Below, one piece after another: positions 248-31,720 of a DNA stretch of 64,000 nucleotides (positions are counted from its first letter, which is position 1; the number at the start of each line of letters is the position of its first letter). The DNA comes from an uncultured Christensenella sp. (GTDB lineage: Bacteria; Bacillota; Clostridia; Christensenellales; UBA1750). The position numbers were made by a program, and so were the translations under genes. The stretch spans positions 1,730 through 65,729 of the forward strand of contig CAOKIU010000005.1 in the NCBI GenBank assembly GCA_948468595.1, read 5' to 3'. Under the pieces are notes generated by a model that had not been told where the DNA came from, did not search any database, and saw nothing but the letters and a program-made list of their open reading frames with translations.

Positions 248-340
248 GTTTCATACCTCCCGTTATCCAGCGTATGCCGCCGCCGGGCCGGGTGTGTGCG
301 CCTTCTTTCAAGGCGCGAGGGTCCAAAATGGAATACGCGC

Positions 341-369
341 TTGCCTGCGCGCGCACGGCGTGCTACAAT
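341..369 (+). promoter_or_regulatory. sigma-70-like promoter TTGCCT-17 nt-TACAAT
   Basis: TTGCCT at 341-346, 17-nt spacer, TACAAT at 364-369, about 40 nt upstream of the 412 start codon. Confidence 0.45.
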
Positions 370-411
370 GGGCGCAATCCCAAGCCCAAGAACACAAAGG
401 AGATGTGCCCC

Positions 412-1482
412 ATGCCTTTTTCCTTACAGCCCGATTATGAGACGGTAAAAAAGCGCTACGACGCCTTTTGGGCGCGCGAGGTCCTGGACCGCCCGCCCGT
501 ATCCATCACCCTGCCGGCCAAGGAGCGGGTGCAGGCGCCGCGCAAGACCTACGCCTCCCAGCGCGCCCGCTGGCTGGACCTGCCCCAGCGCGCGCTGGAG
601 ATGGACGCCGCCATGCGCTCCACGCGCTACCTCTACGACGCCCTGCCCGTCTGCTTCCCCAACCTGGGGCCGGAGGTCTTCTCCGCCTGGTGCGGATGCG
701 AAATGGAGTTCGGCCGGGACACCGCCTGGTCCGTGCCGATGATCGAGGACTGGGACCGGGACGCGGAAAAGGTGCGCCTTGACATGTCCTCGCCCTTGTT
801 CACCGCCTGCGAGGAGTTCACCCGCCTGCTGTTGGAGAAATCGCGGGGGGATTACATCGTGGGCATGACGGACCTTCACCCGGGCGGGGATCACGTGGCC
901 GCCCTGCGCGACCCGCAGAACCTGGCCATGGACCTTATGGACTGCCCGGAGCGCGTGGAGGCCATGCTCTCCCAGGCCGCCGCGGAGTTCTTCGCCGCCT
1001 ACGGCGTGTTCTACCACATGCTCAAAAAGGCGGGCATGCCCATCACCTCCTGGCTGCCGCTCATCAGCGACGGGCGTTACGGCATCCCCTCCAACGACTT
1101 TTCCTGCATGATCAGCGCCGATATGTTCGAGCGGTACTTCCTGCCCGGCATCGTGCAGGAGTGCCGGTTCTACGACAACAGCATCTACCACCTGGACGGC
1201 CCCGGCGCGCTGCGCCACCTGGACGCGCTGCTCTCCATTTCCGAGTTGGACGCGGTGCAGTGGGTGTGCGGCGCGGGCAACGAGGGCTTCGCCCGCTGGG
1301 CGGGCGTCTATCAGAAGATCCAGCGCGCGGGCAAGGGCGTGTATTTGACCTGCCATGTGCGCGAGCTTTCGGAGGTCTTTGCCGCGCTGCGGCCCGAGGG
1401 CGTGTGGTTTGCGGAGATCTCCGGCATCGACGGGGAGGAGACGGCCAGGGCCGTGGTGGACCGCATCACCGCCTGGCGGTAA
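412..1482 (+). CDS. URO-D/MtaA-like TIM-barrel family protein, function unknown
   Basis: Start chosen at ATG 412, 9 nt after AAGGAG; the track ORF starts earlier at 274. Motifs PNLGPEVFSAWCG and HLDGPGALRHLDALL resemble uroporphyrinogen-decarboxylase-like proteins. Confidence 0.65.
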   Translation: MPFSLQPDYETVKKRYDAFWAREVLDRPPVSITLPAKERVQAPRKTYASQRARWLDLPQRALEMDAAMRSTRYLYDALPVCFPNLGPEVFSAWCGCEMEFGRDTAWSVPMIEDWDRDAEKVRLDMSSPLFTACEEFTRLLLEKSRGDYIVGMTDLHPGGDHVAALRDPQNLAMDLMDCPERVEAMLSQAAAEFFAAYGVFYHMLKKAGMPITSWLPLISDGRYGIPSNDFSCMISADMFERYFLPGIVQECRFYDNSIYHLDGPGALRHLDALLSISELDAVQWVCGAGNEGFARWAGVYQKIQRAGKGVYLTCHVRELSEVFAALRPEGVWFAEISGIDGEETARAVVDRITAWR

Positions 1483-1534: not shown

Positions 1535-2500
1535 TCGCTTTTCCTCGTCCCGATCGCCGCAGCGCTCCGCTCCCCGGCTACATTCTGTCACTTTGGCATT
1601 CCGCCTTTACCAGCGCACCTTAAAGAGAGACGCGATGACCAGCCTTTTTTGCCCGCCCCTCGGCCGCTCGTTGCCGCTTTGGCGCTCCTCCCCGCCGCCA
1701 TGCTGCCCCGGGCCTCTCGCCGCATCATACCGCTCCTCGGCTGCGTTCTGCCACCTTGGCATTCCGCCACTGCTGACGCACCGTAAAAAGAGACGCGCTA
1801 ACCGGCCTTTTTCTCCTCTCTCCGGTTGTGCTCCGCCGCTTGCCATTCCGCTCCTACCGGCACACCGTAAAGGGGGCGCGCTAACCGGCCTTTTTTGCCC
1901 CGCCCCTCGGCCGCTCGTTGTCGCTTTGGCGCTCCTCCCCACTGGCATGCTGCTTGGTTCTCGCCACATTACTCCATTCCCCGGCTACGTTCTGTCACTT
2001 TGGCATTCCACCCCTACCAGCGCACCGTAAAGAGCGACGCGCTAACCGGCCTTTTTCTCCTCTCTCCGGCTGTGCTCCGCCGCTTGCCATTCCGCCCCTA
2101 CCAACGCACCGTAAAGGGGGCGCGCTAACCAGCCTTTTTTCCCCGCCCTCCGGCCGCTCGTTGCCGCTTTGGCGCTCCTCCCCGCCGGCATGCTGCTTGG
2201 TTCTCGCCACATTACTCCATTCCCCGGCTACGTTCTGTCACCTTGGCATTCCGCCCCTACGAGCGCACCGTAAAGAGAGACGCGCTAGCCGGCCTTTTTT
2301 GCCCCGTCCCTCAGCCGCTCGTTGCCCTTTGGCGCTCCTCCCCGCCGGCATGCTGCTTGGTTCTCGCCACATTACTCCATTCCCCGACAACGTTCTGTCA
2401 CCTTGGCGTCTTGTCCCTACCGGCACACCAGAAAAGGGACGCGCTGAACGACCTTTTTCGCCCCGCTCCCCGGCTGCGCTTCGGCACAAGCTTCCCGCCG
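1535..2500. repeat. GC-rich higher-order tandem repeat array 1 (about 81-83-bp base unit, 243-244-bp higher-order unit)
   Basis: Anchor tggcattcc at 1594, 1757, 2001, 2244 (degenerate at 2404); anchor tgccattcc at 1841 and 2085. Three diverged unit types are arranged A-C / A-B-C / A-B-C / A-C / A. Several frames are open with no SD sites. Confidence 0.85.
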
Positions 2501-2665: not shown

Positions 2666-3058
2666 TTACTTCACCTGGAGCTTTTCGTTGATCTTCCTGG
2701 CGTTGGCGCGCGTGCCAAAGTAACTGCAAGTGTAAATGATGGCGTAGACGATCAGGAACGTGGGCAGGATGCCCTTGGCCAGCCCCCAAAAGCTCTCGGA
2801 GTACCGCAGGAAGGCGCCCGCGCCGATGGTTACGGAGGCGCACAGCACGAAATGGATGATCGTAGCGGTCAGGAAATTGAGGCGCTCCGTCTCAAAAATC
2901 AGCGAGATCAGCCCGTAAGCCGCGGAAGCGCAAAGCCACACCAGCACTTGCAGCAGCGTCCCATCCATGCCTTGCAGGAGAATCAGCAGCAGCGTGGAGA
3001 CCACCGCGCCGATGCTCAGCCCTTTTTGCAGATAGCCAAATGCCTTTTTCATCTTCAC
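2666..3058 (-). CDS. DUF3021-type small membrane protein
   Basis: 130-aa hydrophobic ORF. It overlaps the upstream LytTR gene by 4 nt (ATGA), the usual LytTR-DUF3021 pairing in Firmicutes. Confidence 0.75.
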   Translation of the reverse strand: MKMKKAFGYLQKGLSIGAVVSTLLLILLQGMDGTLLQVLVWLCASAAYGLISLIFETERLNFLTATIIHFVLCASVTIGAGAFLRYSESFWGLAKGILPTFLIVYAIIYTCSYFGTRANARKINEKLQVK

Positions 3059-3513: not shown

Positions 3514-3641
3514 CCCGTTCCCCCTCTCCTCTCTGTGACGGTTTCAGTATACAGCGCCCGCGCCGCGTTGTCGCGCGAAAAACGGCAACCGGGCGCAAAT
3601 CGCCCGCAACCCGCGCAAATCCGCGCATGAAAAGCGCGGAC

Positions 3642-3669
3642 AAAAAAAGAAAGGGCGACGCCCTTTCTC
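3642..3669 (-). terminator. rho-independent terminator after the HD gene
   Basis: Minus strand reads GAAAGGGCG-TCG-CCCTTTC followed by TTTTTTTG. Confidence 0.75.
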
Positions 3670-3695
3670 CCCATGGTTCCCGGCATGCGCCGCCC

Positions 3696-4175
3696 TCACT
3701 CCCCCAGCGCGGCGAGCGATTTGCAGCAGTTGAGATGCCAATAAAGCCCCGTGACCTCCGCCACGGCGCAGATCTTGTCCGCGAGATTGACGATGAACTC
3801 CTCCCTGCGGGTGGGGAAGGCAAAGAAGGTCACAGGCCACATGTGCTTGCGGATGATGCCCGCCTCCAAAGCCGTCAGGTGGAAGCTCTGCGCGTTGCGC
3901 ACCGCCATTTCCGGGTGAACAAGCAGGTGCCGGTACAGCGACCGCTCCTTCTTCCAATCGCACAAATAGAGGTCGTGCAGCAGGCCGCCCTTGGCGATGG
4001 CGCGCGCGTCCCCGCCCAGGAACCGGGACAGCCGGTACCCCACGTAGGAGACGAACAGGCAGTGGTTCAGGCAGGAGATCCGCTCGGTGTGGTGGGCGAT
4101 GCGCCCCATGGCGCGCACCTTCGGATCTCTCCTCAAATCGCCGGTCATCTGCAAAAACTTCTGTATCTGATTCAA
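3696..4175 (-). CDS. HD-domain metal-dependent phosphohydrolase
   Basis: Motifs HHTERISCLNHCLFVSY, GGLLHDLYLCDW and IIRKHMWP. Start set at TTG 4175, 7 nt after GGAGG, because the ATG at 4223 overlaps the -10 box. Confidence 0.8.
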   Translation of the reverse strand: MNQIQKFLQMTGDLRRDPKVRAMGRIAHHTERISCLNHCLFVSYVGYRLSRFLGGDARAIAKGGLLHDLYLCDWKKERSLYRHLLVHPEMAVRNAQSFHLTALEAGIIRKHMWPVTFFAFPTRREEFIVNLADKICAVAEVTGLYWHLNCCKSLAALGE

Positions 4176-4221
4176 TGCAAAGCCTCCATCCGCCGCGGTG
4201 GCGTGTTCTATCCTTGGCCCC

Positions 4222-4251
4222 ATTATACCACCGCGAGCGCGCGCAATCCAA
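4222..4251 (-). promoter_or_regulatory. sigma-70-like promoter TTGGAT-18 nt-TATAAT for the HD gene
   Basis: Minus-strand TTGGAT at 4251-4246 and TATAAT at 4227-4222. Confidence 0.5.
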
Positions 4252-4282
4252 GAGGAATGATTTGGCTTTCCCATTCTGATCT

Positions 4283-5010
4283 GCGAATTACCCGTTGCCA
4301 ATGAACGCTCAGACCATAGTCTCCGCAAGCGCCTGGGCCCCTGACATGGGCGCAGGCTTGCCGCACACCCATATCCGATCCGCCCTGCGCCCCCGGTCCG
4401 TCTTTAGCAGGGCGCGCTCCAGCCCAACGCAATTGCCTGTTGCCAATGAACGCTCAGACCATAGTTTCCGTAAGCGCCCGGATCTCCGGCATGGGCGCGG
4501 CCTTGCCCGGCGCCCGCATCCGATCCGCCCTGCGCCCCCGGTCCGTCTTTAGCAGGGCGCGCACCAACCCAACGCAATTGCCCGTTGCCAATGAACGCTC
4601 AGACCATAATTTCCGCAAGCGCCCGAATCTCCGGCACGGGCGCGGCCTTGCCCAGCGCCCCCAATTTGCCTTTTACAGGGCGCGCAACAGCCCAACGCAA
4701 TTGCCCGTTGCTAATGAACGCTCGGACCATAGTTTCCGCAAGCGCCTGGGCCTACGGCACGGGCGCGGCCTTGCCCGGCGTCCGCATCCGATCCGCCCTG
4801 CGCCCCACTCCGCCTTTTGCAGGGCGCGCTCCAGCCCAACGCAATCGCCCGTTGCCAATGAGCGTTCTGACCATAGTCTCCGCAAGCGCCCGGACCTACG
4901 GCACGGGCGCGGCCTTGCCGTCACCCACATCAGGCCGCCTCTCTCCTGAGCCGCCTCAGGCCGGGCGCGCGCCCCAAGAGAAATGATGGATCTGCGCACA
5001 CAATCAATAC
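4283..5010. repeat. tandem array 2: five decaying copies (about 145 bp) of the 3' end of the adjacent uridine-kinase-like CDS
   Basis: Anchor cccgttgcc (or 1-nt variants) at 4291, 4436, 4581, 4704 and 4848, and inside the CDS at 5019. Periods are 145, 145, 123, 144 and 171 bp. Confidence 0.9.
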
Positions 5011-5927
5011 GCGAACTGCCCGTTGCCGATAAACTCCCGGATCATGGCGTCCGCGGGCACCTGGGCCTCCGGCATGGGCGCGGCCTTGCCCAGCACCCGC
5101 ATCAGGTCGGCCATGCGCTCCTGGTCGGCCTCGGGCAGAGCGGCGAGGTCATCCATCAGCAAGGGCTTGTAGACGTTGACCTCATAGTCGAAAAAGGTAT
5201 CGATCTCGTGCGTGGCGCGGTGCTTGTGGGGCAGGATGTACTTCTGCTCCCCGCGCTCGACGCTGGCAAAGAGGCGCATCGTCTCCGCCACGCTGCGCCC
5301 GCGGTAGAGCCGGTCGCGCACCATGCGGCGCATGAGGCGGATCCTGGAGGGATGCAGCACGGTATCCCCATCGGTCAGGCGCGTGCGCACGCTCACGTAA
5401 AGGCGCGCCGTTCGCTCCTGGGGGATGGTCACCACGTCGTGGTTGAGCGCATGTATGCCCTCCACAATCACCAGCTCCCCCGGCTTGCGCTGGAGCGTCA
5501 GCCCGGGATACACCCGTGCGGAGCGCGAAAAATCGTACTTGGGCAGGGACACCGCGCGCCCGGCAATCATCGCCTCCAGCTGTGCGTTGAGCAAGCCCAC
5601 GTCCACCCGCGCGGGCGACTCCAGATCGATGAGCCCCTGCGCGGCCATGCGCTGCTCCTGGGGGGTGAAGGGGAAGAAGTAGTTGTCCATCGAGAGCGTG
5701 TGCGTCTCGCACCCCCACGCATCCAGCATTTGCTCCAGCTTTAGCGCGCTGGTGGTCTTGCCGCTGCCCGACGGCCCGGAGATCAGGATCACCGGATGCT
5801 CCTCCCGATGCGCGTAGAGCTCCTTGGCCACGCTGGTGATGCGCTCTTGGTACGCCGCGCCGGCGGCGCATGCAAAGGCCGCCGGATCGCGCGCAAGCTC
5901 GCTGTTGACCTTCATAATATTGACCAT
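5004..5927 (-). CDS. uridine/nucleoside kinase family P-loop protein
   Basis: P-loop ISGPSGSGKTT, LSMDNYFF, and LPKYDF...VIVEGIHALN, which is Udk-like. Confidence 0.8.
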   Translation of the reverse strand: MVNIMKVNSELARDPAAFACAAGAAYQERITSVAKELYAHREEHPVILISGPSGSGKTTSALKLEQMLDAWGCETHTLSMDNYFFPFTPQEQRMAAQGLIDLESPARVDVGLLNAQLEAMIAGRAVSLPKYDFSRSARVYPGLTLQRKPGELVIVEGIHALNHDVVTIPQERTARLYVSVRTRLTDGDTVLHPSRIRLMRRMVRDRLYRGRSVAETMRLFASVERGEQKYILPHKHRATHEIDTFFDYEVNVYKPLLMDDLAALPEADQERMADLMRVLGKAAPMPEAQVPADAMIREFIGNGQFAY

Positions 5928-6094
5928 TTTCGCTCACCCGCCTTCCGAACATCTCCATTCTATTCCCACATGCGCCCCGCCGTCACACTAAAATTCCCCG
6001 GCGGACCTGTTTTTATGTCTCCCCCTTCTGATAAAGAAAAAACCTCCCCCAGCGCCGATGCCAAGACCAGTCAAAATCGCGTGCCGCACGGCTT

Positions 6095-7018
6095 CTACCC
6101 CTCCCCCTCCCGATAGAGGGCGAGCACCTCCCCGGCGCACTGCGCCAGCCGCTCCTTGACCGCTTCCGGCTCCAGCACCCTTACGCCGGCCCCAAAGCCC
6201 ATCAGGATCGAGAACCACATGCGCTCCATCGGCGCGCAGAAGCGGAGAATCGCGTCCCCGTTCTCCAGCTCCTCAACCAAGCTGCAATGCAGGTACTCCA
6301 TCGCCTGCTGCCGCGCCTCCTTTTTGCACAGCAACTTGACCTGAAGGACCGGCCGCGCGTCCGAGCGGGCGAGGCCGTCCAAAACCTCCTTGGCGCTCGC
6401 GTGCTCCCGGGTAAACGCGCCGGCCACGGGCCTTAGCGAGGTCACCCGCGGGAGCTTAAAGAGCCGGTAATCCCCCTTGAGTCTACAGTATGCCGCCAGG
6501 TACCACGCATACCACTGATAGGTCAGGGCCACCGGCTCCACCACGCGCAGGGTTTGCGCGCCCCGCGCGTCGGCATAGCCCATTTCCAGCGGCCGCTTTT
6601 CCGCAATCGCCCGCTCCATGGTGCGCAGGTACTCGTCCGTCTTGTCGCCCTCCCGCGCCGCGCCCAGATTGAGGAAGATCCGCTGGCCGCCGTCGCCCAC
6701 GGCAGAGAGCGTCTTTTCCAGCGTCTCCTTGATGCCGCGGCTGCCAACGGCGGTATCCAGCCCCTTTAGCGCGGCGATTACGTTGCGCCAATCCTCCGCG
6801 CTAGCGATCTGCTTGAGCACCTTGAACCCATCCTGGATGCAGTATCCGCCCCCGGCGCCGTAGAGGGAGACAACGGGGATGCCCGCCAGGCTCAGCGCCT
6901 CCATGTCGCGCACAATGGTGCGCTTGGAGACCTCAAAGCGCTCCGCCAGCTTTTGCGCGCTCACCGTTTCATGGCACAGCAGGTATACCGTCAGCGCGAT
7001 GAGCCGGTCCGTCTTCAT
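6095..7018 (-). CDS. YafY-type HTH plus WYL-domain transcriptional regulator
   Basis: Start at MKTDRLIALTVYLL... (ATG 7018), inside the longer track ORF. N-terminal HTH, then WYL-like YQWYAWYLAAYCRLKGDYRLFKL. Confidence 0.8.
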   Translation of the reverse strand: MKTDRLIALTVYLLCHETVSAQKLAERFEVSKRTIVRDMEALSLAGIPVVSLYGAGGGYCIQDGFKVLKQIASAEDWRNVIAALKGLDTAVGSRGIKETLEKTLSAVGDGGQRIFLNLGAAREGDKTDEYLRTMERAIAEKRPLEMGYADARGAQTLRVVEPVALTYQWYAWYLAAYCRLKGDYRLFKLPRVTSLRPVAGAFTREHASAKEVLDGLARSDARPVLQVKLLCKKEARQQAMEYLHCSLVEELENGDAILRFCAPMERMWFSILMGFGAGVRVLEPEAVKERLAQCAGEVLALYREGEG

Positions 7019-21276: not shown

Positions 21277-21469
21277 CAAAATATAATTAGAAAGGACGCC
21301 GAACCGCCCAGGCGCTTGGATTTCAAACGGGGCGCGAGCGGCGTAAAAGGCTATCGGCGCGACGGTTGATTTCGACGTATATTTTTGAAGAAATGAGCGC
21401 GCAACCAGTCGTTCTAGGCAACAATAGGAACACTTTTCTCAAAAGAAAGACAAAAGGAGGATGAGCCGC

Positions 21470-22546
21470 ATGAGCAGGCTTACAAAACTCGCCCGGCTGA
21501 CCAAGGAATTGGGATTGGACGCGATGCTGCTGACCCATGAGGAAAACATGCATTACGCAACCCTGTTCCCCCATCTGGAGGGCATGGTGCTGGTCATGCG
21601 GGATGGGGAGGGCGTGTGCTTTACCGATTCCCGCTACATTGAAAACGCAACGCAGGTCATGGCGCCGCAGGGTTACGCGGTGGTGGAGCCGGAGGGCTCC
21701 TACCCGACGGTGGAGACCATACGGGACTTTGTCGCCTCGCGCGGCATCCGCGCGCTGGGTTTTGAGGATATCACCATGCCGGTTAGCGTTTTCGAGAGCT
21801 ACCGCGCGGCGCTGCCCTGCGAGCTGATCCCGCTGGGCGACGCGGTCCTTAAGATGCGCCAATCCAAGGAGGAGGAGGAGATCGCCTGCCTGGTCAAGGC
21901 GCAGCGCATCGCCGAGGAGGCGCTGCAACAGCTCCTGCCGGAGATCCGCGTGGGCGCCTATGAGGACGAGCTGGCGGCAAAGCTGGTGTACCTGATGAAC
22001 CTTGGCGGGTCCCAGGCCTCGGTGATGCCCATCTTTGTCTCGGGCGCCAAGACCTCCATGCCGCACGGCCGGCCGTCGCACAAGGCCATTGAGGAGGGAG
22101 ACTTTGTCACCATCGACATGGGCGCGATTGTGGATGGCTACATGTCGGACATGACGCGCACCTTTGCCGTGGGCAGCGCGAGCGAGGAAATGCGCAAGGT
22201 CTATTCCATCGTTCTTGCCGCGCAGCAAGCGGGCATCGACGCCTTTGCCGAGGGCATGCGCGGCTGCGACGTGGATAAGGCCGCCCGCGACGTGATCGAG
22301 GGCGCGGGCTACGGCGCGCACTTTGGCCACGGCCTGGGCCACAGCCTGGGACTCAACATCCATGAGGACCCCCGCGCCAGCCGCACCTACACCGGCGTCT
22401 TCCCCGCCCGCTCCATCGTCACCATTGAGCCGGGCATCTACCTGCCGGGCCGCTTCGGCGTGCGCATCGAGGACATGGTGTGGCTCTCCCCCCAGGGCAA
22501 GCAGAACCTCACCGCCTTCCCCAAGGAGCTGATGATCCTGCCCTAG
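21470..22546 (+). CDS. M24B Xaa-Pro dipeptidase/aminopeptidase (creatinase-N plus M24)
   Basis: The second ATG (21470) sits 9 nt after AAGGAGG. Metal-ligand context DMGAIVDGYMSDMTRT, HGLGHSLGLNIHE and IEPGIY. Confidence 0.9.
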   Translation: MSRLTKLARLTKELGLDAMLLTHEENMHYATLFPHLEGMVLVMRDGEGVCFTDSRYIENATQVMAPQGYAVVEPEGSYPTVETIRDFVASRGIRALGFEDITMPVSVFESYRAALPCELIPLGDAVLKMRQSKEEEEIACLVKAQRIAEEALQQLLPEIRVGAYEDELAAKLVYLMNLGGSQASVMPIFVSGAKTSMPHGRPSHKAIEEGDFVTIDMGAIVDGYMSDMTRTFAVGSASEEMRKVYSIVLAAQQAGIDAFAEGMRGCDVDKAARDVIEGAGYGAHFGHGLGHSLGLNIHEDPRASRTYTGVFPARSIVTIEPGIYLPGRFGVRIEDMVWLSPQGKQNLTAFPKELMILP

Positions 22547-22558
22547 CGCCTGGTCCAT

Positions 22559-22602
22559 GCGCAGAACGCCCCGCCTCCCTAAGGAGGCGGGGCGTTCTGC
22601 GC
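22559..22602 (+). terminator. 20-bp-stem hairpin after the peptidase gene (no U-tract)
   Basis: GCGCAGAACGCCCCGCCTCC-CTAA-GGAGGCGGGGCGTTCTGCGC. Confidence 0.55.
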
Positions 22603-22609
22603 GCTGGGA

Positions 22610-24390
22610 TGCGGTCGCACATAGGCTGCGCGGCGGCTTCTTGCCATCGATTGCGGCTCGCGCGTTCCCTGTGTTTCCCTTCCCTGTGAAGGTCCGCAAG
22701 CGCATGGCTTGGGCGGTGAGCGCCCGCACCGTGGCTTCCCACCATCGGTTGCGGCCCGCATAGCCTCCATCTCCCCGTAGCGTCCCGAGCGTACATGGCC
22801 TGCATCGCGGTCGCACGATCGCCGGACTTCCGCTCGCCAGCATCCCATGAGGGGCCGAGAGCGCATGGATTCTTTGCGGCGGTCACACACGGGCTCCCCA
22901 CCGGTTGCGGCCCGCGCTGCCGCCGCTCTCTGTGGCGTTCCATCCGTACATGCCCTGGGTGGCGGTCGCACGCTCGCCGGACTTCCTCTCGCCAGCATCC
23001 CATGAGGAGCCGAGAGCGCATGGATTCTTTGCGGCGGTCACCTACGGGCTCCCCACTGGCTGCGGCCCACGCAGCCGCTGCGCTCCACCCCGCGAGGGTC
23101 CGCAAACGCATGGCCCGGGTGACGGCTGCCCACGCTGCGGCTTCCTTCCACCAGTCGCGGCCCGCGCAGCCGCCGCTCTCCGTGGCTTTCCATCCGTACA
23201 TGCCCTGGGTGGCGATCGCCCGCACTGCGACTTCCTTCCGCTAGTCGCGGTCGTCCGGTCGCCGGACTTCCTCTCGCCAGCACCCGCGAGAAGCCGGGAG
23301 TGCATGGATTCGCGGCGGTCACCCACGGGCTTCCCACTGGCTGCGGTCCGCGTAGCCTCCACGCTCCACCCGCGAGGGGCCGCAAGCGCATAGCCCGGGT
23401 GACGGCTACCCGCGCTGCGGCTTCCTTTCACCGGTTGCGGCCCGCGCTGCCGCCGCTCCCCCCTGGCGTTCCATCCGTACATGCCCTGGGTGGTGGTCGC
23501 CCGCGCTGCGGCTTCCTTCCGCTAGTCGCGGTCGCACGCTCGCCGGACTTCCGCTCGCTAGCATCCCATGAGGAGCCGAGAGCGCATGGATTCTTTGCGG
23601 CGGTCACCTACGGGCTCCCCACTGGCTGCGGCTCACGCAGCCGCCGCGCTCCGCCCCGCGAGGGTCCGCAAGCGCATGGCCCGGGTGACGGCTGCACGCG
23701 CTGCGGCTTCCTTCCACCGGTTGCGGCCCGCGCTGCCGCCGCTCCCCCCTGGCGTTCCATCCGTACATGCCCTGGGTGGTGGTCGCCCGCGCTGCGGCTT
23801 CCTTCCGCTAGTCGTGGTCTCCCGCTCACCGGGCTTCCTCTCGCCAGCACCCGCGAGGAGCTGGGAGCGCATGGATTCTTCGCGGCGGTCACCCACGGGC
23901 TGCGGCCCGCGCAGCCGCCGCGCTGCGGCTTCCTTCCACCAGTCGCGGCCCGCGCAGCCGCCGCGCTCTGTGGCGTTCCATCCGTACATGCCCTGGCCGG
24001 CGGTCGCCCGCGCTGCGGCTTCCTTCCGCTAGTCGCGGTCTCCCGCTCGCCGGACTTCCTCTCGCCAGCACCCCGAGGAGCTGGGAGCGCATGGATTCTT
24101 CGCAGCGGTCACACACGGGCTTCCCACTGGCTGCGGTCCGCGTAGCCTCCACGCTCCACCCCGCGAGGGGCCGCAAGCGCATGGCCCGGGTAACGGCTGC
24201 TCGCGCTGCGGCTTCCTTCCACCAGTTGCGGCCCGCGCAGCCGCCGCTCTCCGTGGCGTTCCATCCGTGCATGCCCTGGGTGGTGGTCATCCGCTCGCCT
24301 TACTTCCCTCCCGCCAGCACCCTACGAAGGGCCGCGAGTGGCTTGGGCCACGGCTTCCCGCCAACCGCTAGGTTCTCCCTCCCCGCAAGA
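22610..24390. repeat. GC-rich higher-order tandem repeat array 3 (about 1.75 kb; 282-287-bp higher-order period)
   Basis: Anchor gcatgg at 22702, 22863, 23018, 23108, 23302, 23584, 23673, 23869, 24089 and 24179. Subunits of about 70-90 bp share gcggcttcc...gcggcccgc cores. Confidence 0.9.
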
Positions 24391-24553: not shown

Positions 24554-25318
24554 TCAGATGATTGCGACCAGGTTCTTGCATAGCATGACCAAATCGTAGC
24601 GGATTCCCTCGCGGCTATTCCAGCGCCTTCCAGACCATTCCTCTCCCGAGAGGTCATCCCCGCCATAGATCAATGCGCCATAGGCAAAGTTTCTGAATTG
24701 CGCCACGGCAAGGCAGCCCGCTTGTTCCATCTCCACGATCTTCGCGCCTTCCGCTTTCCGCTTGTTGATCCGGTCGGTTGTCTCCCGAAAGATGGCGTCC
24801 GTTGTCCACGTCAACCCGCGAAGATAGGGAATCTTGCGCTGCTCCAGATGGGCTCTGATTTTGCCGGCAACCTCCGAATCGGCGTAAACCACTCTTGACG
24901 GCGCCAGGTATTGATATGAAAAGCCCTCGTCCCGAATGGCGCCGTCTACCACGAGAATCTGCCCAACCTCGATGCTGCGATCCAGAACACCGCCCCCGCC
25001 GCAGAACATGACCTTTTCAATCCCCATTGCGTGAAATTCGTCCAGGCCCCCCGCGCAAGCAGGGCAGCCAACCCGTCCAAGCGTCAACAACACGTCGGGC
25101 TGCTCCGCAAAGCGATAAACCATCAGGGGGTTTTCACCGGGCATCAGCCGCTCCTGAACGATCTGTCCCCTCTTTGCCAGCCGGTCTACGACCTCCGGAA
25201 AGAAGGTTATCACCATCTTGTCCGTCTCAAACTTCTCATGCGTGAAATTTTCCGGGTTTAATCTTGCTTCCGGATTGTCGTCAAATTCCAGTACAGGAAA
25301 CTCACTGTTGTGATACAT
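24554..25318 (-). CDS. PNP/UDP-family nucleoside phosphorylase-like protein
   Basis: Start MYHNSEFPVLEF at 25318 follows AAGGAG. Motifs GRVGCPACAGGLDEF and VEMEQAG. Confidence 0.75.
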   Translation of the reverse strand: MYHNSEFPVLEFDDNPEARLNPENFTHEKFETDKMVITFFPEVVDRLAKRGQIVQERLMPGENPLMVYRFAEQPDVLLTLGRVGCPACAGGLDEFHAMGIEKVMFCGGGGVLDRSIEVGQILVVDGAIRDEGFSYQYLAPSRVVYADSEVAGKIRAHLEQRKIPYLRGLTWTTDAIFRETTDRINKRKAEGAKIVEMEQAGCLAVAQFRNFAYGALIYGGDDLSGEEWSGRRWNSREGIRYDLVMLCKNLVAII

Positions 25319-29718: not shown

Positions 29719-30655
<937 letters not shown>

Positions 30656-30681
<26 letters not shown>

Positions 30682-31720
30682 GGTCCTCTCCTCCTTCCCC
30701 TGTTGTGTAGCGGTTTTCCACCTTGGGCGCGTACTCGTGTTGCAGCCAGCAGCGCACCTGGTGCCCGCCGGCGGCGTCGGTAATCTCCGGCATGCGCTCG
30801 TGGCAGATCTTCATGCAGTAATCGCACCGGGCGGCAAAGGGACAGCCCTTTGGCGGGTAGATGAGGTCCGGCGGCGTGCCGTCGATGGGCACCAGCCGGT
30901 CGGTGCGGCCCGTGCCGGGCTTGGGGATGGAGTCCAGCAGCCCCCAGGTATAGGGGTGCTTGGGATGGTAGAAGATCTCCTGAACGTCGCCCGATTCCAC
31001 GATCATCCCCGCGTACATCACCGCCACGCGGTCGGCAATATCCGCCACCACGCCCATGTCATGGGTGATGATGAGGATGCCGGTTTTCAGCTTCTCCCGC
31101 AGCTCCAGCATCAGGTCCACAATCTGGCTTTGAATCGTCACGTCCAGGGCTGTGGTCGGCTCGTCGGCAATCAAGATCTTGGGATCGCACACCAGCGCCA
31201 TGGCGATCATCGCGCGCTGGCGCATGCCGCCGGAGAACTCGTGCGGGTACTGCCGCATGCGCTGCTCGGGGTTGGAAAGGCCCACAAGCCTCAGCATCTC
31301 CACGGCCCGGTCGTAGGCCTGCTTGCGGCTGACCTTCTGGTGCTTTAAAATGCCCTCCATGATCTGGTTGCCCACCCGCGCGGTGGGGTTGAGCGAGGTC
31401 ATGGGGTCCTGAAAGATCATGCTGATCTCGCGGCCGCGAACCTTGCGCATCTCGGATTCCGAGCACTTGATCAGGTCCCGGCCCTCCAGCTCGATTTTTC
31501 CGCCCTCGATGACGCTGGGCGGGGAGGGGTTGAGCTGCAAAATGGTCTGGGCCGTGACGGACTTGCCGCAGCCCGATTCGCCCACCACCGCCAGGATCTC
31601 CCCCTTTTCCATGGAGAGGCTGACGCCGCGCACCGCCTGCACGCGGCCGGCGTAGGTCATAAAGGAGACGTGCAGATCCTCTATCTTCAGCAGCGGCTTT
31701 CTATCCTTGTTTTCGCTCAT
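30656..31720 (-). CDS. oppD: oligopeptide ABC transporter ATP-binding protein
   Basis: Walker [10 protein letters not shown] and signature FSGGMRQR. It overlaps oppF by 26 nt. Confidence 0.9.

Follow-up and report, generated by a model that had tools for sequence, protein, structure and literature searches.

Behind a PRK/uridine-kinase-family gene in the window, the whole 64-kb stretch of DNA that was analyzed, lies an array of copies of the end of that gene. Five contiguous units of 146, 145, 123, 144, and 133 nt occupy positions 4283-4973, and all of them are homologous to the end of the kinase coding sequence (CDS). The array is very probably an old, species-specific minisatellite that arose by tandem duplication, non-coding and most likely without function. 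The mechanism is ordinary, that of a tandem-duplication minisatellite whose unit includes the last 45 codons of the gene. Mildly unexpected are the age of the array relative to the divergence of the strains and the density of arrays in the window.

Layout of the locus

The features discussed here are listed in Table 1. The genes read around the locus are those for WYL, kinase, HD, LytTR, and DUF3021 proteins. More than 5,000 kinase homologs of approximately equal length were found. The HD-gene product matches Pfam HD with an E value of 8.5e-4, which is under the gathering score, and the start of its gene was fixed by comparison with the sequence MNQVQKFLQM of the relative L029. The kinase stop and the HD gene are 828 nt apart on the minus strand and, in gene orientation, the order is CDS end, TGA, spacer A, U1 to U5, spacer B, TGGTATAAT, GGAGG, and the TTG of the HD gene. 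Judged from its sequence, TGGTATAAT may be the extended -10 element of the HD-gene promoter. PADLOC left the kinase and HD proteins without a match and gave only generic WYL matches for the WYL regulator, and a defense-system context was rejected on these grounds.

Table 1. Features of the kinase-HD intergenic region and of the adjoining WYL-regulator end, in gene orientation
Feature	Coordinates	Strand	Remarks
WYL-regulator gene	6095..7018	-	adjoining gene
86-nt segment, single-copy form	6049..6128	-	last 35 nt of the WYL-regulator CDS including TAG, plus ~50 nt downstream
PRK/uridine-kinase-family gene	5004..5927	-	307 aa, intact; source gene of the array; Pfam PF00485 PRK, E 5.9e-18
Source segment, last 45 codons (residues 263-307)	5007..5141	-	five tblastn matches; blastn of unit against 5014-5142, 75% identity
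Spacer A, post-stop (TTGTGTGCGCAGATCCATCATTTCTCTTGG)	4974..5003	-	alignable with spacer B and with the intergenic region of L029
U1	4841..4973	-	133 nt; most divergent; in-frame TAG; 5' junction to spacer A
U2	4697..4840	-	144 nt; in-frame TAG
U3	4574..4696	-	123 nt; 22-nt internal deletion; in-frame TGA
U4	4429..4573	-	145 nt; no separate counterpart in the four-unit assemblies L020, L022, and L059
U5	4283..4428	-	146 nt; 3' end retains CDS-like ..AATTCGC and continues into spacer B
Spacer B, post-stop (..AAATCATTCCTCTTGGATTGCGCGCGC..)	4231..4282	-	homologous to spacer A
Candidate extended -10 of the HD-gene promoter (TGGTATAAT)	4222..4230	-	same in the array-free relative L029
HD-domain gene	3696..4175	-	159 aa; downstream neighbor; TTG start 4175; GGAGG 4187..4183

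The units are copies of the kinase CDS end

The homology covers approximately 129 to 135 nt of the CDS (5007/5014-5142), i.e., codons 263-307, and the other ~12 nt of a 145-nt unit derive from the post-stop spacer. Counting the copy in the CDS, there are six copies, which are direct, head to tail, and in register, with no unique DNA between them. The anchor cc[ct]gttgc[ct] lies on the plus strand at 4291, 4436, 4581, 4704, 4848, and 5019, with one further site in the 64 kb. A repeat search returned a single six-copy family with spacings of 145, 145, 123, 144, and 171 nt, the sixth member of which is inside the CDS (5014-5142) and is 75% identical to the reference unit; TRF reported periods of 145 and 123. 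The coordinates, anchor positions, and spacings given in the initial annotation all hold on recount.

The similarity is far above what chance provides. Ungapped, 4283-4392 against 5011-5120 gives 81 identities in 110 positions, exactly the number that had been counted by hand; other ungapped offsets of the CDS segment, on both strands of the window, give a mean of 30 (standard deviation, 5.9; maximum, 59), and 5,000 dinucleotide shuffles give a mean of 32.8 and a maximum of 52. Local alignments of the units with the CDS end score 46 to 65, well above shuffled controls with means of ~10 and maxima of 16 to 20 (z = 23 to 33), which is the comparison that the initial annotation had called for. 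When the kinase protein was searched against the array with tblastn, five matches were obtained, all to residues 263-307, with E values from 2.5e-9 to 4e-5.

The direction of copying can be read from relatives of the kinase. The C-terminal motif ..VP..S(M/I/L)(I/L)REFIG..F.Y is kept across homologs from Bacillota, Bacteroidota, and Acidobacteriota, and a copy of the CDS end downstream of the gene was found at none of the ~35 homolog loci fetched from genomes and metagenomes. Since the motif is conserved across phyla in homologs that have no array, the CDS is the source of the units, and a mobile repeat that invaded the gene end was rejected for the same reason. No further copy of the unit occurs in the 64-kb window. 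L029, the nearest relative found, has 79% protein identity and an 87-nt intergenic region with the same TGGTATAAT, followed by the HD gene and with no array. The array was seen only beside kinases at least 99% identical to that of the window, and genome and metagenome scans found no kinase between ~99% and 79% protein identity, so that the origin of the array is datable only to after the split from the L029 lineage.

Divergence and non-coding status of the units

Every frame of the array contains three to nine stops in each of four strains, and two of the periods (145) are indivisible by three. Read in the frame of the gene, U1 and U2 run into GKAAPVP followed by a stop, and U3 to U5 have a stop between MV and AF, as had been described. 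Mismatches between CDS and units fall on codon positions 1, 2, and 3 in numbers of approximately 6-8, 3-6, and 8-10, with 27 positions each, and differences among units show no concentration at codon position 3. A coding repeat or read-through extension was rejected on the stops in every frame and strain, on a period that is not a multiple of three, and on the lack of a third-position excess. With stops in all frames and no codon-position pattern, the units are non-coding relics of the gene's own 3' end and not generic repeat DNA, which upholds the earlier reading. An antisense open reading frame at 4440..4949 on the plus strand, called as a gene of 167 to 169 aa in L020, is treated as spurious because it has no homolog among 5.8 billion proteins.

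The mismatch spectrum is led by unit-T/CDS-C (31 of 100) and unit-A/CDS-G (22 of 100). By unit base, the mismatches number 33 for T, 26 for A, 22 for C, and 19 for G, and most are transitions. This GC-to-AT spectrum is the expected outcome of relaxed selection in a region of 66% G+C.

All five units are at nearly the same distance from the CDS, with 65 to 69% identity overall and 17 to 22 mismatches per ~80 nt in the 3' part. In a neighbor-joining tree rooted on L029, the units share a single clade, which a long stem separates from the CDS and in which U1 is the outlier; U2 to U5 are 76 to 89% identical to each other. The units had been called progressively decayed, a term that does not fit these data, as they are about equidistant from the CDS and the tree shows no gradient with distance from the gene. 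The single unit clade, its long stem, and the equal distances from the CDS indicate instead that one old copy decayed and was then multiplied. Divergence is 21 to 28% between units and CDS and 11 to 30% between units, compared to ~0.3 to 3% between strains, and the array is thus much older than the strain diversity.

Strain comparison and array polymorphism

Assemblies of different samples from NCBI, ENA, and Logan yielded twelve contigs encoding the identical kinase. Most of them stop inside the array, as is expected of a repeat, and those that reach far enough agree in their units, in the unit order, and in the private substitutions. The array has thus been recovered from independent samples and assemblers, i.e., from an NCBI metagenome-assembled genome (MAG), ENA SPAdes contigs, and Logan contigs.

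There are five units in the window and four in L020 (an NCBI MAG) and in L022 and L059 (Logan, two samples), all of these being short-read assemblies in which units may have collapsed. The four-unit forms are not alike. Unit 3 of L020 has its 5' part from U3 and its 3' part from U4, and unit 4 of L022 and L059 has its 5' part from U4 and its 3' part from U5; the two distinct chimeric joints point to independent losses of one unit by unequal exchange. In a tree of the units of the window, L020, and L022, units group by position, which implies that an array of at least four units predates the divergence of these strains.

When the window is compared with L022, the first 470 nt of the array show 13 mismatches, which cluster at homologous sites of U1 and U2; the 924 nt of the kinase CDS show 5 synonymous differences. 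As far as these sequences indicate, the array would change between strains at a roughly neutral rate, with conversion-like tracts. Over its final 135 nt, the CDS differs among the 12 conspecific contigs by a single synonymous T/C, in a sample that is biased in that most contigs were fetched by exact protein identity; L030/P0121, fetched by similarity, has the same C-terminus. The initial annotation had seen in the array a reservoir of sequence homologous to the gene end, a claim that this invariance does not support, as it gives no sign of conversion into the gene.

Origin of the array

Spacers A and B share ..ATCATT(T/C)CTCTTGG..GCGCGC.., and both align with the intergenic region of L029. The full spacer is kept only at the two outermost junctions; at the inner junctions (..CAATTGC/GTTGGGCTGG..GCGCGCC..) the local spacer is shortened by ~33 nt. 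Recurrence of the post-stop spacer after the last unit, before TGGTATAAT, argues for a tandem duplication of the CDS end together with the spacer. The flanks of the array reproduce the single-copy arrangement, as is the case for a duplication and not for an insertion, and the junction of U1 with spacer A is the original duplication joint. The original breakpoints are eroded beyond showing microhomology.

The standard model for such arrays, with which the kinase array agrees, has two steps, an initial duplication and then expansion via unequal crossing-over (PMC1428787). In the simplest history, which the anatomy suggests, ~180 nt were duplicated in an illegitimate or short-homology event, from codon ~263 through the stop into the spacer (the last ~135 nt of the CDS, the stop, and ~40 nt), ending just upstream of the HD promoter. 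The 5'-most copy would have stayed on the CDS and the 3'-most copy on the promoter, and the event would have been selectively silent because neither gene was damaged. The extra copy then decayed as non-coding DNA, as is shown by the substitution pattern, with its stops, its changes at all codon positions, and its GC-to-AT bias. The junctions and the tree suggest that a derivative lacking ~33 nt around the old stop (..CAATTGC/GTTGGG..) was re-amplified to give U2 to U5. Finally, as the comparison of strains shows within the limits of short-read assemblies, homologous unequal crossing-over and short conversion tracts still alter the array and give rise to five- and four-unit alleles that differ in their chimeric joints. 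The kinase transcript probably carries the array as untranslated RNA, or else the array is plain spacer.

Given that bacterial genomes are biased toward deletion, it is somewhat surprising that 0.7 kb of useless DNA has lasted so long, and, as a counterpoint to the neutral reading, this could hint at selection for its presence or length.

A second duplication at the WYL gene and other arrays

The kinase array is not the only one of its type at this locus. The 86-nt segment at the end of the adjoining WYL-regulator gene is present once in the window, L021, and L030 and three times in tandem in L020, with a 92% match. L022 and L025 have at least two copies, since their contigs begin inside a copy of the junction type. 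Exactly at its two breakpoints, the single-copy allele carries direct repeats of 13 nt that are nearly identical (GCGCCGGGGAGGT / GCGCTGGGGGAGGT), and these are the expected substrate for the first duplication step. The WYL-end array is younger than the kinase-end array, and its presence shows that this species has undergone duplication across a CDS end more than once and that such duplications start as ordinary short-repeat events.

Two other long-period intergenic arrays lie in the window, at 1554-2477 and 22682-24338. An origin from a CDS end was rejected for both, as neither has DNA or protein similarity to its flanking genes. The 64-kb window thus holds three long-period intergenic arrays, totaling ~3.3 kb, and a fourth that is polymorphic among strains, and two of the four copy a CDS terminus. 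This density might mean that tandem duplication of 80 to 290 nt at gene boundaries is unusually active in this uncultured, Christensenellales-like species, or that the species has an unusual tolerance of, or selection for, such arrays, a suggestion that we regard as rather unlikely. If it were true, whether through a peculiarity of replication or repair or through selection for long arrays between genes, the kinase array would be one visible outcome of a way of genome evolution peculiar to this lineage.

Search for function and alternative explanations

Nothing in the searches made here indicates a role for the array. The intergenic region had been described as a structured 3' region, a claim that its ordinary folding does not support: z scores are near zero, ranging from -1.7 to +0.9 among the units and reaching -0.5 over all 828 nt. 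Rfam gave no match at E≤1 for 3600-6100, except for a chance hit of 0.84 elsewhere, and none at the gathering score for the whole window. No terminator-like sites were found in the array or between the kinase stop and the HD start, and the single promoter-like match in the array is weak and lies where U5 meets spacer B. The 8-bp inverted repeat CGCCCTGC...GCAGGGCG is present in U2, U4, and U5, where it is better paired than the matching CDS sequence; U3 has lost it by deletion, and the last unit of L020 has both arms broken without compensation. A structured RNA, riboswitch, or terminator array was rejected on these results.

A broader proposal is that the array is a selected cis-acting element, either a long spacer, 3' untranslated region, or leader that uncouples the HD gene from kinase read-through or an array of protein sites or hairpins. 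The array has outlasted strain divergence by far, is present in all conspecific contigs that extend far enough, and is probably transcribed, given that no terminator separates the kinase stop from the HD start; the inverted repeat that pairs better than the CDS would also be accommodated. We nonetheless consider this proposal very unlikely, since the fold energies match those of shuffles, Rfam is blank, and the hairpin is missing from one unit and broken on both arms in another, and since the copy number is variable, the closest relative has no array, and the change in the array between the window and L022 (13/470 nt) is similar to the synonymous change in the kinase gene (5 in 924 nt). Still less probable is an artefact in which the assembler inflated one duplicated or unique segment. 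Many short conspecific contigs do end within the array, where assemblers struggle, and the difference between five and four copies may be collapse, but the same units, order, and private substitutions are found in the window, L020, L022, L059, L023, L024, and L030, from different samples and pipelines, and units that are 11 to 30% apart each have unique k-mers.

The remaining explanations concern recombination with the gene or with mobile DNA. Silent cassettes would vary the C-terminus by recombining into the gene, on the pattern of the pilS/pilE, vls, and tprK donors; they would resemble the array in that unexpressed partial copies of the 3' end adjoin the gene, short conversion-like tracts connect the units, and a few positions of the last L022 unit match the CDS. 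This is extremely improbable for a segment that is the most conserved motif of a cytoplasmic kinase family and whose 135 nt are invariant, bar the one synonymous difference, in the partly biased sample of 12 contigs; every cassette has stops in the frame of the gene, and an adjoining recombinase is absent. A diversity-generating retroelement (DGR), with the units as template repeats and the CDS end as the variable repeat, agrees with the locus in geometry alone, a copy of the CDS 3' end lying just downstream. Its probability is next to nil: the mismatches are not bound to adenine and are mostly transitions, and it was on this spectrum that the DGR was rejected; the identity is just 65 to 79%, there are five diverged copies instead of one template, and the target is a conserved kinase motif without sequence variation between strains. 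Lastly, the units could be scars of repeated integration and loss of mobile elements at the kinase 3' end, each of which brought a replacement copy. Serial copies of a gene's 3' end typify att-site duplication, which occurs at the ends of tRNA genes. The units are strictly contiguous, however, with no DNA, integrase, or element remnant between them, the units together make up a single clade descended from the resident gene, and the junction between units is a shortened form of the local spacer. No integrated element was found between the kinase end and a displaced 3' copy in the ~35 loci, and we hold this origin to be as improbable as the silent cassettes and the assembly artefact.

Comparison with known systems

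The anatomy of the kinase array is what a tandem duplication with one breakpoint in the CDS and the other downstream must look like. In common with bacterial minisatellites and VNTR loci, it has head-to-tail units without spacers, an intergenic position, a strain-dependent copy number, chimeric units at the joints of deletions, and unit-to-unit conversion tracts. It differs from them in its long unit (123 to 146 nt), which is traceable to the final 45 codons and the spacer of the adjacent gene. The units of typical typing VNTRs are near-identical, whereas those of the kinase array are old and 11 to 30% diverged. The mycobacterial MIRU, tandem units of 40 to 100 bp between operon genes, belong to a dispersed family at many loci and do not come from the neighboring CDS. 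They are like the kinase array in that tandem units in variable copy number fill a gap between co-oriented genes, and unlike it in that the kinase unit occurs at one locus within the 64-kb window and was copied from the CDS end of its neighbor.

Closer in origin are the pseudogenes made of a gene's 3' fragment that follow tandem duplication, as in duplicated mitochondrial control regions and at the borders of plastid inverted repeats. There, too, an intact gene is followed by a truncated, decaying copy of its end, which is neutral since the first copy completes the gene; the kinase fragment, in contrast, has been re-amplified to five copies, and in a bacterial chromosome. The pairs of template and variable repeats of DGRs share with the array a nearby non-coding copy of a CDS 3' end and differ from it in that the array has no adenine-specific pattern, low identity, several diverged copies, and an invariant target. 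The pilS, vls, and tprK donor loci likewise hold incomplete copies, themselves unexpressed, with homology to a portion of an expressed gene, and in the kinase array the segment is invariant, the gene is that of a conserved cytoplasmic enzyme, and the cassettes have stops.

Our search for published descriptions of bacterial CDS-terminus tandem arrays as a class found nothing specific. The initial annotation knew of no described case of serial duplication of a CDS terminus; the feature is real, yet it is less unusual than was supposed, given the second, younger case at the WYL gene. The value of the locus is mainly practical and illustrative, with no pointer to a new mechanism or function. It illustrates how harmless a tandem duplication that spans a gene's 3' end can be: such duplications can persist, decay, and re-amplify, since the first copy leaves the gene complete and the last one retains the downstream promoter. 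On the practical side, the array fragments short-read assemblies and draws the spurious antisense gene call of 167 to 169 aa, and together with the polymorphic 86-nt WYL-end array it is a possible strain-typing marker for this uncultured gut species.

Gene ends near the kinase

The order of the WYL-domain regulator, PRK-family kinase and HD-domain protein genes (window 3696-7018) is kept in L029, the closest array-free relative (79% kinase protein identity). The gene 3' of the kinase differs in the more distant locus L001, from Ca. Spyradocola (a 67% relative). A PADLOC search with the kinase and HD-domain proteins returned no defense-system match.

The end of the WYL-domain regulator gene carries an 86-nt segment that straddles the stop codon, comprising 35 nt of CDS end and ~50 nt lying 3' of the gene. 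Its copy number varies among contigs of the same species: the window, L021 and L030 have a single copy, L022 and L025 have at least two, and L020 has three in tandem. In the single-copy allele, 13-nt near-direct repeats sit at the breakpoints of the segment.

The homologous kinase gene of L017 is also followed by a tandem array, beginning 7 nt past the stop codon. This array is not derived from the kinase CDS end, and so the position that it shares with the window's kinase array (five non-coding copies of the gene's 3' end) is probably coincidental.

On the strand opposite the kinase, an ORF crosses the kinase array; a public MAG lists it among its genes. We rejected it as a spurious call, since its register shifts from unit to unit of the array and no homolog was found.

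Tandem arrays and the antisense ORF
Feature	Location	Description
WYL-end segment	window 6049-6128	86 nt, one copy
WYL-end segment	L020 2628-2885	86 nt, three copies
Array after kinase homolog	L017 4808-5258	161 nt × 2.8, 98% match; Acidobacteriota MAG
Antisense ORF	window 4440-4949 (+); L020 3979-4482 (-)	167-169 aa
Long-period tandem array	window 1554-2477	TRF periods 244, 160, 84; matches 63-87%
Tandem array	window 22682-24338	~1.65 kb; periods 286, 155, 91

Other repeats in the window

The long-period array fills the convergent intergenic region between the gene at 274..1482(+) and the DUF3021 gene (2666..3058(-)), and part of it is present at L020 6313-6700. Neither similarity to the flanking genes nor an Rfam match was found for it. 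The ~1.65-kb array also occupies a convergent gap: the gene on its left (21461..22546, +) is Xaa-Pro aminopeptidase-like, and the one on its right, on the minus strand, has its end at 24554. This array showed no relation to the window's other arrays or to the flanking proteins. A nearly perfect 44-nt palindrome (22559-22602) lies directly 3' of the aminopeptidase-like gene. At 29942-31626 there are two adjoining, mutually similar stretches, ~1 kb apart, with similarities of 66% across 368 nt and 81% across 68 nt, a pattern that suggests tandem paralogous genes.
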